A DNA stretch of 63,974 bases, counting the filler, from Neolecta irregularis DAH-3 (lineage: Eukaryota): assembly GCA_001929475.1 (NCBI GenBank). It is 10 parts of 10 records of this genome, joined end to end, with 100 filler letters (N's around TTAATTAATTAA, not from the genome) between each part and the next. Parts side by side here need not be neighbours in the genome. Positions count along the whole stretch, not along the records: positions 45,771 to 50,530 come from LXFE01000493.1; 9 more parts are not named here. One strand, 5' to 3'. Below, piece by piece: positions 3,883 through 62,330 of the stretch. The notes beneath the pieces are model-generated. The model searched no databases and was not told where the DNA came from. It saw only the letters and a program-made list of their open reading frames with translations. The position numbers were made by a program, and so were the translations under genes. Numbering within the stretch: position 1 is the first letter of the stretch; each line of letters starts with the position of its first letter.

Positions 3883-5484
3883 TCAAAAGGATATATTTTC
3901 CAAAACGCTAGCAGCCTGCAGGAGCCCTTCTTCGTCTCCGCATTGGGCGATAATTTGCAGCCCAATAGGAGCTTGATTTTCTTTTTGTACTGGTATGGAA
4001 ATTGCAGGAATACCTGTCGAGTAAGCCGGTATCTGATTATGAAAATATTTCTACCTGCCAAGCTTGCTGGAACAGTAAACACGTCATGGACAAAACTTTC
4101 AACATCGCTTTTCTGACGCCTTAAACTTTTAATAGTTGGAGCCGTCGTCACCGAACAAGGTGCAAGAATGACGTCAACACCATCTGGGTTATTTTGCATA
4201 GTGAGGCCTAACGGATTCTTCCAACGGAAGACTTGATTAAAGTCGGTTTGAACCAGTCTCCGCACGCGCTGTGCTTTGATGTAATAACTCTCTCGGGCGC
4301 TTTTTATTCAGACCAAAGCATTGGGGGAATGTCACCTGGATGTCAAAGTATAAGTCCCAAGCAAGATTCTACGCTTCACTTCTGCACCAAATCCTTCATC
4401 GCGTGAAATGATAAAGTTAAAATCACCCTCAGGCCGATGACCATATCTGATACCATCAAATTTGGCGAGGTTCGAAGAGGCTTCTGCTGGTGCTAGAACA
4501 TAGTATGCAGGTAGTGAATTCTTTGTATTTGGTAAACTGACTGTTGTAACAGAATGGCCCTGGGAACAAAAGTACTCGCGAGCTTTGTGCCATGCAGTTC
4601 GAATTTCTGGTTCTAATTCTTCGATATTATATTCCTATGTAAATCAGTAAAAAGGTCGATGGACGTGAAGCACCTTTGGGATACCTAGACGGATTTTGTG
4701 TTTATCACGCCGCCTCAGATCTTGTAGATCGCTGTTTGCATGTGCAAATTTGGTTCGTGAACTTGCCGATAAACTGGTAGGATCTTGGGGATCGTGATGG
4801 TTGAGAATTTCTATCCTGGTCAAAGGTATACTTGGGGTCCCAAACCCCAGAGTTTCTTTATATTCGCTAGATTTGAAGCAAAAATTCCAACTGTGTCAAG
4901 AGAGTTGGCATAAGCAACAACGCCCCATCTCGAAATCATTCCATATGATGGCTTGAAGCCAATACACCCGCAATACGAAGCAGGAAGTCTCACTGAACCC
5001 CCAGTGTCGGTTCCAAGGGCTCTATTGTTTAAACCAAATTTGCAAAACAAGGTGGCTACGCATCAACCAGGTTGGCAGCAACAACAGCAGCACTGCCGCC
5101 ACTGCTTCCACCAGCACTATGCTCGACACCTGGGAACCGCGGGTTGATGGTTGGTCCATATATTGTATTGAGTGTATTTGAACTGCATGACATGAGATAA
5201 AGCCTGCAGAACTGAGTTCACACCCCATTCCGAACTCATCCATATTTGTTGTTCCGAAAATATCGATGCCGGCTTCACGCAGCTTTAGGACTACAGTGGA
5301 CTCGAATGGCGATACATAGTCTATTTGGACGCCTTAATGATGAACAGTACGCTTAAAACATGCCATTCAAGAACTGCGAAGCGCATGAGAGAGGCAGCTC
5401 CGAATGCGCAATATTGGCCTTGATAGCCACACGCAATGCCGACGAAACACCAGCAGGCAATGAGTGGACAATTGCATTCAGCAT
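3883..5484 (-). CDS. HER2: Mitochondrial glutamyl-tRNA(Gln) amidotransferase subunit A (GatA/Her2)
   Basis: [61 protein letters not shown]. Multi-exon. Confidence 0.9.
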
Positions 5485-5563
5485 CAATACTCAACTCGAA
5501 AAGAATTTGCAATGATCGTGGACATCACGTGGAGCGAACCATACCGTCATCTCACTGGAAAAC

Positions 5564-8645
<3,082 letters not shown>

Positions 8646-45770: not shown

Positions 45771-46300
45771 ATTGCCAATTCATTACTGAATACTGCTTAT
45801 GGTTGCTGAAGGAACACCAAGCGGAAATCCGGGGATAACTCTGCCGAGCCTCCAAAGAAGCATCGAAAAGCAGACCATGTCGAACCTGATGATAATGATT
45901 CTACCATGGGTGGTAATGATGACACTTTTAATTATGAAGCAAGTCACTCTGGCCAACAAAGTATTACAACTAAGTATCAAACGCTGAACATCTAGCTGGT
46001 GACGATAACGATTCTACCATGGGTGGTAATGGCGACTCTTTTTATTATGAAGGAAGTCACTCTGACCAACAAAGCATTACATCTGCGAATCAACTAGGTG
46101 TGTTAAACGCTGAACTTTTATCTGTGCACACTGTCTATGAGTCAGATGCCGAGGATGACTATTCAACAGAAAGTCAAGATGATCAACAAAGCATTACAAA
46201 TGCGAATCGACTAGGTGTATTAAACGATGAACCTGTATCTATGTACACTGTCTATGAGTCAGATGCCGAGGATGACTCTTCAACAGATATCTACGAATGA
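45771..46300 (+). pseudogene. 3' end of the orphan secreted-protein family: basic motif plus acidic repeat tail, frameshifted
   Basis: First 66 nt are identical to 50465-50530. Then PPKKHRK, GGNDD/GGNGD x2 and VYESDAEDD x2. Confidence 0.55.
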
Positions 46301-46614
46301 GGAAGGAAGAGAATACATACAAACCTCTTAGACCTCAGTGCCCGTTTTTGTTTCTGCAGATATGAAGGCAAGTTTATTTTAATATGTGTTTTGTAGTGTC
46401 AACATGATATTGTTTAATTGTAAAATGAATGTCCATACAGATATTCTGCCCTTGATATGAATTATAACCGAATAATATCGGTGCCAGACCACGATTGAGA
46501 CTCCGCCATGCCGCACTTGTGAGACTGCCCAATGCAAGTCGCATTTGAACATGCCCAGACTAGGAGACTGCCCACTGCGAGACGCACCTGAAATGACATC
46601 CGACTGGGAGACTG

Positions 46615-47931
46615 TGCAGTTTGAACATGCCGCGCTGCAGCAGTTCACCGCGTATGCGTACTCGCTCTCCATCTAACTCTAACCGCAGCGCCTACAAACG
46701 CGGCGACATCCTCGTCAATCTCGACGGCGGCCAGTCCATTGCAAAGGTCTTTCTTCAAACCAGCCCATTGAACAGATTCCACCGCTTCGACCCGCTGCTC
46801 TGCCTGACATGCGCCGCCTCTTGCCGGTGTCACTAACCGCCGCAACTCGCTCGACCTGCTGTCGCTGCAGCCCATGCTCGATTTCGTCGACCGAGCCGTC
46901 AAGGAAACCGCAAGACAGGTCGCCATCATCCCTGGCTCAACGCCCTCGCGCTCCTCTTTGACCGCTTCCTCAAATCCGTCGTCCAGCCCTATCTCGCAAC
47001 ACTGCTTACCCATGCCGCCCGCCTCGACTGCCCCGCCTACCTCCACATCGTCGTCGCCTGCTTCCAGCAGTCCTTGCACATCCACACCGTGTGCGTAGAC
47101 GCCCCTGCCGCCAGCAGGACCTTTAAAAAACACGCAAAATCCTGCACCGCCGCCTTGATCGCCCCCTTTCTCGATCACTACCTCGAAAAGGAACTCGAGT
47201 ACTTTTGTTCCGGACCAGGTGGATTCTTTGGAGAAAAAGGTGCCGACGTGCATCCTCACTACTCACTCCAGATCCAGCTCGAAGCCGCAGCTACGAAATC
47301 GCTCTTGCTGAACAACGCCAAACACGACGTCGTCAAACGAAACTTTCTCGCCTCGTTTAAAAATGCAATCCTCGCCCCGGTGTCCGTCCTCGCCATCCCC
47401 TCTAAAAGAGTCGCTTCACCTCCACCCGAGCTGGCTGCCCAAACAGAAATCCTGAAACCCCGTCTCGAAGGCATTACATCGCTCTTCAGCCTTGAAATCG
47501 CTTTGACAATAGTAAACTCTCGAAGAGAAGCTCTGGACCGCGCAAACCATTTCATAGCCCTCGACGGTCCCCTTGCACCCCACACGTCCGCACACTCCTT
47601 GTCCTTGATCCTAATTTCAATGTGAAGAAATATTTAGCTTATTGGATATGTTCGGAAATAGCCATATCAAGGTAGGGTTTGACAAAGCTATTCTACACAT
47701 GTTGATATACTCTTCCAAAGATTCATCCCACACCCCCCGTCCGCTTCCTCGAACTAGTCCACATTGGCGATTTAATCCAACAAATAATTGACCTCTTTTA
47801 CCAACAAGAAATGGTTAATCATCTTTTGTCCAAACTAATTTTAGAAACATTTAATTGACTGCAACGATTTCTTGAATCCGGCCGTTAAAGAAAAGAAGAA
47901 TTTTGAACAATTGATAGATGAACGCGTCGCA
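46615..47931 (+). pseudogene. RCY1: Internal fragment of recyclin Rcy1/Pof6 (Sec10-like region), decayed
   Basis: FEHAALQQF..NLDGGQS, KRNFLASFK, RLEGITSLFSLEIAL, HIKVGFDKAI, FLELVHIGDLIQQ, FLNPAVKEKKNFEQLIDERVA. Frameshifts and deletions; no start, stop or F-box. Confidence 0.8.
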
Positions 47932-47944
47932 ATAATTACAAGAG

Positions 47945-48320
47945 TACAGTATTATCCATACTCCCCGTTGCAATAATATTTCCATCGGGAGACCAAGACG
48001 CGCACAGAACCCAGTTGGTGTGCCCTGTTGATGGATAAAGGGATACAGGCAAGGCACCTTTTAAAGTATACTGCGGTGTCTGCGTTAGACAGTCCCATAT
48101 CCGAGCTGTACCGTCCCTACTGCCAGTAACTAGTCTCTCAGAGCCATTCGGACCAAATTGCGCCGTCAAAATTTCAGAAGAGTGCCCGCTTATCGACGAG
48201 GTACATCTCGTCACAGAACGAAAGCGAAATACCGCTTGAGGAGTATACACCAGTTTCAGTATTCTATGTTTTAATATGTCGGTGTATATGTTTTCCAGCA
48301 CATCGACCGCCGGCTCATCA
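47945..48320 (-). pseudogene. RSA4: Fragment of ribosome-assembly WD40 protein Rsa4/Notchless
   Basis: YTPQAVFR..VTRCTSSISGH...ARIWD..TQTP..TLKGHTNWVLCASWSPDG..IATGSMDNT. Only the first ~2 WD repeats, one intron retained. Confidence 0.85.
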
Positions 48321-48407
48321 TTCGACCCAGCAATGCGAATTCGAAACCCCCACGCCCGTCCATAGCAGCTTGAAAGGTATTCCGCACACTACACGTAATA
48401 ATACAAG

Positions 48408-48860
48408 ATGGCGCCGCATCTGCAGAAATGGACGCTCAAGCAGCAGGAACTGGTGTCGGGAAAACCCGGCGCGGCAGGAACCGGAGACGAGTATGCCGAC
48501 AGCGAGCGCGGCGCGTGTCTGCTGTGCCAGCGGCAGTTTCGCAGTGTCGAGACCCTGCACCGCCACACGCAGCACAGCGAGCTGCACCGCCACAACCTGC
48601 AGAATGCAGACACTCGTAAGGCAGCGGCGCGCCGCATAGCGTCGTACCGCGACCGGGCGCGAGATCGGCGCAAGGCCTACCGGCAGCCGGGGCGGCCGGC
48701 AAAAGATCCGCCGCGGGAGAAAGATCCGCCGCGGGAGAAAGATCCGCCGCGGGAGAAAGATCCGCCGCGGGAGAAAGACCCGCGGGAGGAAGAGGCGCCC
48801 GGCGACAAAGACACAGACATCGACAAAAGGGCGCAGCTACTGGGCAAGATGGGCTGGGCA
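48408..48860 (+). pseudogene. C-terminal fragment of an RBM5/RBM10-like splicing factor (C2H2 finger plus truncated G-patch)
   Basis: CLLCQRQF...HTQHSELHRHNL, YRDRARDRR, LLGKMGW, then an abrupt end with no GLG half of the G-patch. Confidence 0.75.
48702..48788 (+). repeat. 18-bp coding tandem repeat AAAGATCCGCCGCGGGAG (KDPPRE) x4 plus a partial copy
   Basis: Perfect copies seen directly. Confidence 0.95.
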
Positions 48861-49058
48861 GCGCATCGCAGGGCCGCGTGGAGCCGGTACGTGATAAATC
48901 AGATGGTTAAGGGTGGCTGAGGGGATGTATTCTGCCTTCTCAAATTCGAGACTTGTCCTAAAGTGCCATTTTTTGATTCACATCGACACTTTAACCACTA
49001 TAAATGGACGAGATGCAGCTGATCTAGAAAGACAGAGTACCCGATCAACAAAATTAAC

Positions 49059-49714
49059 ATGTTGTTTCTCAGGTATTTTCTTTTCCTTGGTGGATGCTAC
49101 TTATGTTTGCAGGACTATATGCTTTGGCATTCTTGCTATCATGCATGCTACTGCCACACTACAAGGTATTTTTGTGGAAAATATACAGGTTGCCACACAG
49201 GATCCCAATCAACCAGTATTTGACCCAGTATCCGAGTTGAAAAAACTATGGTATCATCCACCTGCAGAAGGCATTTGTCGGTGTCATAAAGATCAGTACG
49301 ATCGCATGAAACGGGAATATGGGGATCCCTATTTTCCTATTGTGGCAGTCATATTAGACGGATGCGAACCTTTCAGTAAATCTGTGGGTAAACGTTCGTA
49401 TGGAATTATAAGTCATAGTCGAACCCTTTTCAGAGAGTCATCGAATAATTTGGTAATGCTTTGTGACTGCGGCCATATTGATCTGGCAGTTTTCTCTCTC
49501 AGCCACAAACAATCTGTTTCAAAAGAAAGCGAAGGATACTATTTTAGCAGTTCTAGAAATAATCAGCAATGATCCAGGAGGATTTATATACAAGGATAAT
49601 CCAAAATATTGGGTATATGAGAGGCTTGCACCTATTCTTTTTCCATACAATGACAACAAGGACCTGAGGTATTGCCAATTCATTACTGAATACTGCTTAT
49701 GGTTGCTGAAGTAG
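49059..49714 (+). CDS. Orphan predicted secreted protein (copy 1)
   Basis: ATG 49059, intron 49073-49112, giving MLFLRTICFGILAIMHATATLQG (signal-peptide-like). A second ~37-nt GTAATG..CAG intron joins it to the FSLSATNN...YCLWLLK exon. Confidence 0.6.
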
Positions 49715-49735
49715 CACCAACCGGAAATCCGGGAC

Positions 49736-50530
49736 ACAGGTTGCCACACAGTATCCCATTGGTCAACCAGTATTCGACCCAGTATCCGAGTTGAAAAAAC
49801 TATGGTATCATCCACCTGCAGAAGGCATTCGTCGGTGTGATAAAAATCAATACGACCGCATGATACGGGAATATGGTGGAGATCTCTATTTTTCTATTGT
49901 GTCAGTCATATTAGACGGATGCGAACCTGTCAGTAAATCTGTGGGTAAACGTTCGTATGGAAGTATAAGTCATAGTCGAAACCTTTTCAGAGAGTCATCG
50001 AATCGTTTGGTAATGCTTTGTGACTGTGGCCATATTGATCTGGCAGTTTTCTCTCTCAGCCACAAACAATCTGTTTCAAAAGATCAGTATGACCACATGA
50101 AACGGGAATATGGTGGAGATCTCTATTTTTCTATTGTGTCAGTCATATTGGACGGATGCGAACCTGTCAGTAAAACTGTGGGTAAACGTTCGTATAACAG
50201 TATATGCAACAGTCGAACTGTTTTCAGAAAGTCGTCGAATAGTTTGGTAATGCTTTGTAACTGTGGCCATATTGATCTGGCAGTTTTCTCTTTCAGCTAC
50301 AAACAATCAGTTTCAAAAGAAAGCGAAGGATACTATTTTAGCAGTTCTAAAAATAATCAGCAATGATCCAGGAGAATTGATATACAAGGATAATCCAAAA
50401 ATTTGGGTATCTGAGAGGCTTGTCCCTATTCTTTTTCCATACAATGGCAAGAAGAAACCGAGGTATTGCCAATTCATTACTGAATACTGCTTATGGTTGC
50501 TGAAGGAACACCAAGCGGAAATCCGGGGAT
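49736..50530 (+). pseudogene. Tandem partial copies of the same orphan gene (no signal peptide, internal duplication)
   Basis: LKKLWYHPPAEG x2 and ILDGCEP x3 across 49200-50530 at high nucleotide identity. Confidence 0.75.
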
Positions 50531-50630: not shown

Positions 50631-50784
50631 AGGAGAGGAGAGTTGAGTACCGATAGCAAGTACTGGATAGGGGAGAGTACTGATACTGAGTAGTGGAGTA
50701 GATACTGAGAGTGAGGGTGAGGGTGAGTAAAGTACTGAGTATACTACTGTAGAGTAGTGGTGAGTGTGAGTGTAGAGTACTGCT
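50631..50784. repeat. Copy of the GAGTAG/TACTG-rich repeat at 56089-56250
   Basis: Near-identical sequence at both ends of the contig. Confidence 0.85.
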
Positions 50785-56515: not shown

Positions 56516-56765
56516 NNNNNNNNNNNNNNNNNNNNNNNNNNNNNNNNNNNNNNNNNNNNTTAATTAATTAANNNNNNNNNNNNNNNNNNNNNNNNNNNNN
56601 NNNNNNNNNNNNNNNCAACAAGATTTGGAGGATATTAAAAAATATCGAAAGAGGCGGAGGTGACCGGTTGTAAGCGGTGACTAGATGGTATTGTAGCGGA
56701 TGACAGGATGATTGTAGCGGAAGACAGGATTATGCGGATGACTAGGATGGTATTANNNNNNNNNN

Positions 56766-60830: not shown

Positions 60831-61399
60831 ATATTGAAGGTGTCCAGTCTTGAAAAATTGAAAAATTTGCTGTGGTAAGATTGCTAGAATCCATATTGAT
60901 AATTGGAATTAACATTTCAATATAATGATATCTCTTGGGATAACAGAGATAATTTCTGGTAGATATATTTAGAAAATATTCAATGTCTCATTAAAAGTCT
61001 TAAACAGTCAAGTCTATTCAAGTCCAAACAAGCAAGTCTGATCATATGAAGAATTTCGGCCACCTATACAGTCAGCACACAACCTTAGGTTGAGCACTGA
61101 TGTGGACTTAGGTTGGATATGCTGCTGTAGATACTGCTAAAGAGTGATATTGAATATCAGGTCAAAGCCTAGCCAGCTAATCTGGCTGGGCGCTACTTAT
61201 GTACAGAGTCGCNNNNNNNNNNNNNNNNNNNNNNNNNNNNNNNNNNNNNNNNNNNNTTAATTAATTAANNNNNNNNNNNNNNNNNNNNNNNNNNNNNNNN
61301 NNNNNNNNNNNNTGAGTTACCGCGTTGCGCACTCGCGTTCCCTCTCACCGCCTTGACCGCTGGCGCTCCATCTCACTGCTTGTCTGATCGCGATCCCTA

Positions 61400-62330
61400 A
61401 AATGCCCCTCCCGCCGCTCCCGTTCCGCCCGCCCTCCCGCCGCACCCGTTCCTCCCGTCACTCCCGTCGCTCCCGTTCCGACTGTCCTCCCGCCACTCCC
61501 GCCGCTCTCGTTCCGCCTGTCCTCCCGCCGCTCCAGTTCCACCTGCCCTCCCGCCGCTCCCGCCACTCCCGTTCCACCCTCCCTGCCGCTCCCGTTCCGC
61601 CAAACCATCCTGTCCCTCCCGCCGCTCCCATTCCACCCATCGCTCCCATCGCTCTCGCCTCTACCGTTCTGCCTATCGCTCCCGCCGCTCCCTTTCCACC
61701 CGCCGCTTCTATTCCACCCATCGCTCCCGCCTCTCCCGTTCCGCCCGCCCGCCTTCCTCGTCCCGCCCGTCTCGCCAGTCCTGCTCGTCTCGCCCATCTT
61801 GCTCGTCCCGTCCGTCCAGCCTGACTCACTCGTCTCCCCCGTCTCGTACCACTCTCCCGCCCCGCCCGACTCGCTCCTTCCCGCCAGACTGTCCCTTCGC
61901 CCGTCACGCCGTCTTGCCCTCGTTTGTCCTGTCCGCCTCGTATGTCCAGCCTGCCCCGCCTGCCCCGCCCGCCTCGCTCGTCCCGCCCGACTCTCCCCAC
62001 TCGCCCTCCTCGCCCTCCTCGCTCCTCCAGCTCGTCACGTCCCACTTGCCCATCCCTCCCGCCCGCTTCGCCTGTCCCGCCCGCCTCGCTCGACTCGCTC
62101 GTCCCGCCAATCTCGCCCGTCTTGCCCTCACTTTTCCCGTCCGCCTCGCTTATCCCACCCGCCCTGAGNNNNNNNNNNGACTCTCTCCTTCCCTCCCCAC
62201 TGTCCCTTCGCCCGTCACGCCCGTCTTGCCCTCGTTTGTCCTGTCCGCCTCGTTTGTCCAGCCCGCCCCGCCCGCCTCGCTCGTCCCGCCCGACTCTCCC
62301 CACTCGCCCTCCTCGCCCTCCTCGCTCCTC
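61400..62330. repeat. C-rich low-complexity repeat (CCCGCCGCT/CTCGCC). Related sequence at 60067-60290
   Basis: Extreme strand bias and internal duplication. The overlapping ORFs are compositional. Confidence 0.85.

Follow-up and report, generated by a model that had tools for sequence, protein, structure and literature searches.

The stretch of DNA analysed here, hereafter the window, comprises 63,974 nucleotides, spacers included, of the Neolecta irregularis DAH-3 genome (GenBank assembly GCA_001929475.1), in which 10 small scaffolds are joined end to end by spacers of the form N44-TTAATTAATTAA-N44. The region under study, positions 45771-50530, corresponds to a complete scaffold of 4760 nt (LXFE01000493.1), on which decayed fragments of three conserved genes, coding respectively for Pof6/Rcy1, Rsa4/Notchless and an RBM5/10-like protein, lie packed between the two separated parts of a repeat-rich orphan gene, and whose first and last 66 nt are identical. 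An earlier note made from the sequence had described the fragments as following one another almost without spacer and in alternating orientation, and this layout is borne out: the Pof6 piece lies on the forward strand, the Rsa4 piece on the reverse strand and the RBM5-like piece again on the forward strand, with ~10 nt (47932-47941) and <60 nt (48347-48404) between them. For further evidence we turned to two public sequencing runs from one study, here called X1 and X2, which contain 79% and 69%, respectively, of the sampled words of the scaffold. This evidence takes the form of Logan contigs placed on the scaffold, which were built by a different assembler from the scaffold's own; the depth of such a contig is not a copy number, and depth, strand and transcript ends are not readable from it. 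Contigs of both runs cover all 30 bins into which the scaffold was divided. Because the X2 contigs show five GT..AG skips of 31-49 nt and those of X1 show none, we read X2 as cDNA-like in behavior, although it is labelled 'DNA?'. The introns thus supported are all very short, in the pseudogenes and the orphan gene alike.

The first fragment (46593-47931, forward strand) is a Pof6/Rcy1 (Sec10-like) pseudogene that recovers the Pfam family Sec10_HB (E 2e-9). Its best protein match is the 'F-box protein pof6' of N. irregularis DAH-3 (OLL26673.1, EukProt P005074; 69% identity, E 1.8e-81), to residues 1-433 of whose 624 it corresponds, the homology breaking off at 47931. The earlier note had spoken of internal fragments throughout, a description that does not hold for this piece, as it begins at residue 1 of its annotated relative. 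It has lost 10 codons in one deletion, is scrambled over residues ~71-125, where it also has an in-frame stop, and changes frame at least three times. Two introns, at 46652-46688 (37 nt) and ~47814-47844 (31 nt), are spliced in X2 and have no counterpart in the alignment to the intact protein. A third stretch removed from an X2 contig as an intron, the 49 nt with GT..AG ends at ~47672-47720, is of a different kind: it corresponds to VGFDKAI...LYSS in intact Pof6, and is a case of cryptic intronisation of former coding sequence in a pseudogene transcript. The Pof6-derived block has at its left edge two degenerate direct copies of a 29-nt unit (46521-46549 and 46564-46592, forward strand), spaced 43 nt apart, which resemble the first Pof6 codons. 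With regard to the intact gene, we observed that the 624-residue N. irregularis pof6 product lacks the N-terminal F-box carried, according to Pfam, by two other Rcy1/Pof6 matches. The homology of the pseudogene begins at the same residue as the annotated protein without F-box; either a 5' exon is missing from the Neolecta pof6 gene model, or the F-box was lost in this lineage.

The second fragment (47942-48346, reverse strand) corresponds to residues 76-203 of the 508-residue N. irregularis Rsa4, with the protein match proper extending over positions 47948-48346 (WD40, E 3e-20). It is 73% identical to the Rsa4 of N. irregularis DAH-3 (OLL26672.1, EukProt P005073; E 4.7e-73), the next-best fungal Rsa4 proteins reaching 45-57% identity. 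A 6-codon deletion in a conserved motif and the replacement of a conserved WD-repeat glycine by arginine mark it as decayed, and relative to the intact protein it retains a 33-nt GT..AG insert at 48025-48057, a kept intron. At 16 columns conserved in 17 other fungal Rsa4 proteins the fragment and the intact Neolecta protein differ; the fragment carries the departure at 11 of these, the intact protein at 3, and the remaining 2 fall to neither side. An X1 contig matches the scaffold to the right of 47942 but carries 255 other letters to its left, the last 30 of which, read on the Rsa4 strand, complete a 33-nt intron and then give a Val codon, as in the ...DNT|V... of the intact protein. From this we infer that a fuller Rsa4 copy is present in the DNA of run X1, that the Rsa4-side breakpoint of the mosaic is at 47941|47942, 6 nt into an Rsa4 intron, and that fragment and fuller copy share at least 95% DNA identity over the fragment's last Rsa4 exon.

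The third fragment (48405-48889, forward strand) is the C-terminal quarter of an RBM5/10-like gene, with a C2H2 finger and a frame-shifted start of the G-patch. Positions 48405-48860 are 35% identical to residues 443-596 of the 659-residue RBM5 of Pneumocystis jirovecii, from the zinc finger to the first residues of the G-patch, whose remains reach ~48889; the piece also yields DUF7066 at 26.8 bits, just below the cutoff of 27. It contains an expanded 18-nt repeat at 48702-48783 and has a GC content of 67% in a genome of ~44-47%. The earlier note had ascribed short introns to all three fragments. X2 splicing upholds this for Pof6 and the 33-nt insert does so for Rsa4; for the RBM5-like piece there is a candidate intron at 48377-48407 and no stronger sign of intron retention. 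Because introns were kept, the fragments were copied as DNA, as the earlier note had concluded, and we reject retroposition on the same ground. Likewise rejected was the idea that we are looking at the intact orthologues of a second organism, as both runs show the truncations, frameshifts and fusions of the fragments.

The junctions between the fragments recur in the contigs. The Pof6/Rsa4 junction (47932-47941) is bridged by a spliced X2 contig that matches 47756-47812 and 47844-48194, and marginally by an X1 contig at 47756-47971; the Rsa4/RBM5 junction is crossed by the X2 contig 48172-48531, and the stretch from the RBM5-like piece to the promoter of the orphan gene by the X2 contig 48749-49073, with X1 contigs chaining over all three places. 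The mosaic is therefore not an artefact of the original assembler, and the absence of junction-spanning sequence, which the earlier note would have taken as a sign of chimeric misassembly, is not what we observe. We also noted that the cDNA-like X2 contigs cover nearly all of the pseudogene block (46455-49073). In this run splicing removes the forward-strand introns of the block and leaves the antisense Rsa4 intron in place, which suggests a single read-through transcript running from behind an upstream copy of the orphan gene towards the next.

One place at which the X2 contigs do not bridge as the window does lies at 46455-46459, 155 nt behind the stop codon of the orphan gene. Here two X2 contigs abut in the pentamer ATATG and then continue into sequence unlike the scaffold, TGTAAG... 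on one side and ...CTTACA on the other. With TG..CA ends, 6-nt inverted termini and a 5-bp duplication, this looks like a candidate polymorphic insertion of the long terminal repeat (LTR) type with a 5-bp target duplication; the LTR-like ends taken from X2 had no match in the window at up to 3 mismatches. Accordingly, we read the X2 break as an insertion polymorphism, not as an absent junction.

The orphan gene is split over the two ends of the scaffold. Its 5' part (49059-50462, forward strand) comprises exons 49059-49072, 49113-49452, 49490-49668, 49712-50246 and 50284-50462, with loose ends of X2 contigs at 49110 and 49489 that fit its first and second introns. A candidate TATA box, TATAAATGG (48999-49007, forward strand), lies 52 nt upstream of the ATG. 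The N-terminus is hydrophobic and is probably a signal peptide, predicting secretion, and is followed by ~2.5 copies of a unit of ~185 residues, with a 237-nt tandem duplication at 49842-50320. The 3' part (45812-46300, forward strand) consists of exons 45812-45960 and 45996-46300 and a 35-nt intron, which is seen as a GT..AG joint (45960 to 45996) in X2; it encodes a basic KRK/PPKKHRK stretch and then an acidic tail made up of 113- and 117-nt tandem repeats, and its stop codon ends at 46300. If the ATG at 49059 is taken as the start and the frame is followed across the right end of the scaffold into the left, 566 codons result, with a terminal stop as the only stop; six splice combinations were tried for the join, and the other five gave 3 to 42 stops. 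Four of the six introns of this 566-codon model have some X2 support, in the form of two joints (50460 to 45810 and 45960 to 45996) and the two loose ends.

The product of this gene has no significant match to a Pfam family, its best score in the ESM Atlas is 0.81, below the lead level of 0.9, and its single-sequence AlphaFold2 model has a mean pLDDT of 31.8. The gene resembles the tandemly duplicated, lineage-specific genes for secreted repeat proteins of fungi in its hydrophobic N-terminus, its ~185-residue units, its 237-nt and 113/117-nt repeats, the lack of detectable relatives and the presence of several near-identical versions in X1, the DNA run, and differs from them in that no known family or fold was found for it. 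The label 'effector-like' given to it earlier is a prediction based only on the probable signal peptide and the lack of relatives. Neither blastn nor tblastn found further copies in the window. The several sequence versions that X1 contains over the orphan gene have summed depths 3-6 times that of the mosaic, which, with the reservation that contig depths are not copy numbers, hints at the existence of further copies.

We then examined the identical ends, for which the earlier note's figure was confirmed at 66 of 66 nt. In the left copy (45771-45836), the final 41 nt of a 43-nt orphan-gene intron (45771-45811) are followed by the first 25 nt of the next exon (45812-45836); the right copy (50465-50530) directly follows the donor GT of that intron at 50463-50464, so that the end junction falls, as had been claimed, inside the orphan gene. 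A third copy, 91% identical, lies at 49671-49736 over the equivalent intron after repeat unit A. An X2 contig joins 50460 to 45810 as a splice and thereby links the end of the scaffold to its start. Because the two parts of the orphan gene form one open frame and are linked by this spliced contig, we regard the scaffold as circularly permuted relative to the gene, with the 3' part at its left end and the 5' part at its right. Since a linear chromosome cannot otherwise give a permuted gene, the mosaic must be flanked by two or more complete or partial copies of the orphan gene, or else the unit must be tandem or circular. Directly after the left 66-mer X1 offers two continuations (variant depth 364/687 at 45837 and 45863), and the X2 contig across the join has the variant letters at these two positions, not those of the window; the 66-mer therefore has at least two different right-hand flanks. 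De Bruijn assemblers are known to leave identical contig ends where a loop or break occurs at a repeated k-mer or (k-1)-mer. The scaffold shares with such contigs an exact overlap of fixed length inside a repeat that has a third, 91% identical copy, as well as the branching of X1 contigs directly behind the 66-mer, and departs from the expectation in that exact terminal self-overlap is seen in 1 of the 10 window scaffolds, namely this one. Hence, the most plausible reading of the identical ends is that the assembly broke within a repeated gene, with 66 nt corresponding, as we infer, to the overlap length of the assembler. The earlier proposal of a collapsed tandem or circularly permuted repeat unit thus survives in a weaker form, as a permuted orphan gene supported by the open frame and the X2 link.

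As to the origin of the mosaic, the most informative observation concerns the intact relatives: the N. irregularis pof6 and Rsa4 proteins bear consecutive accessions (OLL26673.1 and OLL26672.1) and are encoded on one contig of 21,845 bp. With consecutive numbers on one contig, intact pof6 and rsa4 are neighbouring genes, and independent capture of unrelated genes need therefore not be assumed; the earlier characterization of the source genes as unrelated is right as regards function and wrong as regards the position of these two. Presumably the arrangement is shared with Schizosaccharomyces pombe, in which we take pof6 and the Notchless/Rsa4 homologue to be neighbours as well. Were three genes drawn at random from the ~5,500 of N. 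irregularis (a number given in PMC5309816), the occurrence of two of them as neighbours would by our own estimate be roughly a 0.1% event. In the mosaic the pof6 and rsa4 pieces abut tail to tail, which is what one deletion across convergent neighbours would leave. Judged by titles and the beginnings of abstracts, none of the literature found on Neolecta pseudogenes concerns this topic, a search within PMC8537764 gave no mention of pof6 or rsa4, and no literature was found for the fission-yeast systematic names.

Based on these observations we propose, as a moderately probable explanation, that the mosaic is a shrunken, dead DNA-level copy of a contiguous block of genes, situated between repeated orphan genes, and that the scaffold ends mark an assembly break. 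Under this proposal, a single DNA-level duplication would have copied a stretch of chromosome carrying pof6 and rsa4 side by side, probably with the RBM5-like gene adjoining them. We posit a two-deletion history, in which one internal deletion would have taken away the 3' ends of pof6 and rsa4, presumably convergent, and another the 5' end of rsa4 together with most of the RBM5-like gene; the copy would also have gained its frameshifts, stop codon and small deletions. The pseudogene copy would now occupy the spacer that separates two full or partial copies of the repeat-rich orphan gene, whose product is probably secreted; one of these copies would supply the tail found in the window upstream of the mosaic, and the second the 5' part downstream, continuing beyond the scaffold into a slightly different tail. 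The assembler would have stopped at the shared 66-mer on both sides, giving rise to the identical ends and the permuted gene. The block itself would have no function of its own, being carried along in read-through transcripts from which its old introns are still spliced.

With respect to known kinds of feature, a shrunken, transcribed segmental-duplicate pseudogene block is of an already known type. Like other non-processed pseudogenes derived from segmental duplication, the block retains introns, carries disabling lesions (a stop, frame changes, deletions and truncations) and has intact relatives elsewhere, and two of its fragments preserve the neighbor relation of those relatives. Unlike typical examples, it is heavily shrunk, with ~2.3 kb left of three genes after the two proposed deletions, it is still transcribed and spliced, and no parent was found for its third piece.

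Several observations weigh against this proposal. Adjacency on the 21,845-bp contig was found for two of the three genes. No Neolecta parent of the RBM5-like piece was found by a word-based search among longer proteins; an exhaustive profile search gave 373 RBM5 matches at E <= 0.001, whose best single-stretch identities are just 43-48%, and the 20 matches looked up, out of 150 listed of the 373, included Pneumocystis, Umbelopsis, Lipomyces, Penicillium, Syncephalis and Rhizopus and no Neolecta. With no RBM5 parent, a three-gene block is proven for two genes only. Furthermore, the divergence of the Rsa4 piece from the intact protein is uneven, with 65 of 68 residues matching over 136-203 and only 39 of 60 over 76-135, which uniform neutral decay does not predict. 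The GC content at third codon positions (GC3) of the RBM5-like piece (0.79) and the Pof6 piece (0.58-0.73 over 46939-47586) also exceeds the 0.34-0.57 of 8 ordinary open reading frames (ORFs) of the window. The uneven divergence and the high GC3 may result from gene conversion involving the parent, or from a parental locus rich in GC. Finally, the variants that follow the 66-mer may be allelic and not paralogous, as three other scaffolds of the window contain near-duplicates of 94-98% identity, typical of a mixed or heterozygous sample.

An alternative that we regard as possible, if rather unlikely, is that the whole unit of 4694 bp, orphan gene and pseudogene block together, belongs to a collapsed head-to-tail array or a circular extrachromosomal DNA. 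The exact 66-nt overlap, the frame that stays open across the join and the transcript-like contig from end to start are all as such a unit would have them, and the two versions of parts of the mosaic, ~0.5-2.5% apart between X1 and X2, could be units of an array. However, these variants may simply be alleles, and the sole end-to-start joint listed is the X2 splice with the variant letters at 45837/45863, none being listed for X1. Moreover, an array predicts equal depth throughout, whereas the summed X1 depth is ~408 over the mosaic and ~600 in the bin of the 66-mer, a weak argument given that these are contig depths. We consider it improbable that this takes the more elaborate form of an amplified or circular cassette, in which the secreted-repeat gene would be co-amplified with the block serving as terminator/promoter spacer and as a source of spliced non-coding RNA, possibly driven by the LTR-type element at 46455-46459.

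The earlier note had compared the mosaic with the cargo of mobile elements. In Pack-MULE and Helitron capture, known from plants and, for Helitrons, also from fungi, chimeric read-through RNAs of captured genes have been reported; here, too, intron-bearing pieces of several host genes are packed tightly together in mixed orientation and co-transcribed as chimeric read-through RNA, and the candidate LTR-type insertion shows mobile DNA landing at this locus. Nevertheless, that the mosaic is the cargo of a non-autonomous element (Helitron, Pack-MULE or similar), taken up as one contiguous piece or as several, is in our estimation very improbable. Unlike in a Pack-MULE, no terminal inverted repeats (TIRs) bracket the mosaic: the scaffold has 0 inverted repeats of >=20 nt, and of the 4 inverted pairs that a looser search (seed 8) gave in 46250-49100 none encloses it. 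Unlike in a Helitron, neither strand of the scaffold has a hairpin (stem >=6 bp, loop 3-8 nt) followed after 4-15 nt by CTRR-T, by a simple scan that could miss degenerate ends, nor was an end of the form 5'-TC...hairpin-CTRR-3' found. The 56 long ORFs scanned for protein families, from 77 listed in the window, include no transposase, Rep/helicase or reverse transcriptase, so that the earlier statement that no transposase or element ends are visible stands for the scaffold and the scanned ORFs; nor does the window contain a second copy of the mosaic. Two of the three source genes are linked and not scattered, making multiple captures unnecessary, and the suggestion of cargo gathered from unrelated loci is not supported. 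That an element with its ends beyond the scaffold took up a single contiguous piece is a slight possibility.

It remains to consider whether the scaffold is a chimera, misassembled from reads of unrelated loci or organisms. The assembly is indeed fragmented and has allelic pieces scaffolded in, GC content along the scaffold ranges from 40% in the orphan gene to 67% in the RBM5-like piece, and the X2 contigs at 46455-46459 continue otherwise than the window. Yet contigs from a different assembler and from two runs cross the Pof6/Rsa4, Rsa4/RBM5 and RBM5/orphan-promoter junctions, and the coverage of every bin in both runs points the same way; we hold this to be the least probable of the explanations. 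The shrunken duplicate of neighboring genes stays the explanation that we favor.

If it is correct, then what looks like exon shuffling in a fragmented assembly of a fungus can turn out to be a shrunken segmental duplicate of neighboring genes, and identical scaffold ends can arise from a break within a repeated gene. For annotation, the three fragments are to be flagged as pseudogenes, and the orphan gene, split as it is over the scaffold ends, is one that gene callers would overlook or cut short. The still-spliced block is also a small case in nature of splicing that persists after the coding function is gone, including the 49-nt intron made from former coding sequence.

The remaining scaffolds of the window contain ordinary fungal housekeeping genes split by introns, among them those for phosphofructokinase, chitin synthase, MCM and P-type ATPase. 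The three scaffolds with near-duplicates each start with a piece of 140-177 nt set off by N10 (1-177, 50631-50784 and 56616-56755), which recurs inside its own scaffold, at 2629-2778 in the first and at scaffold positions 5458-5616 and 1327-1467 in the other two; these are probably allelic pieces that were scaffolded in, the sample being mixed or heterozygous. A further scaffold (61313-62330), of 1018 nt and 70% GC, contains degenerate repeats and, on each of its strands, long ORFs rich in Pro and Ala; it gave no Pfam match, and may be a contaminant or a low-complexity region.

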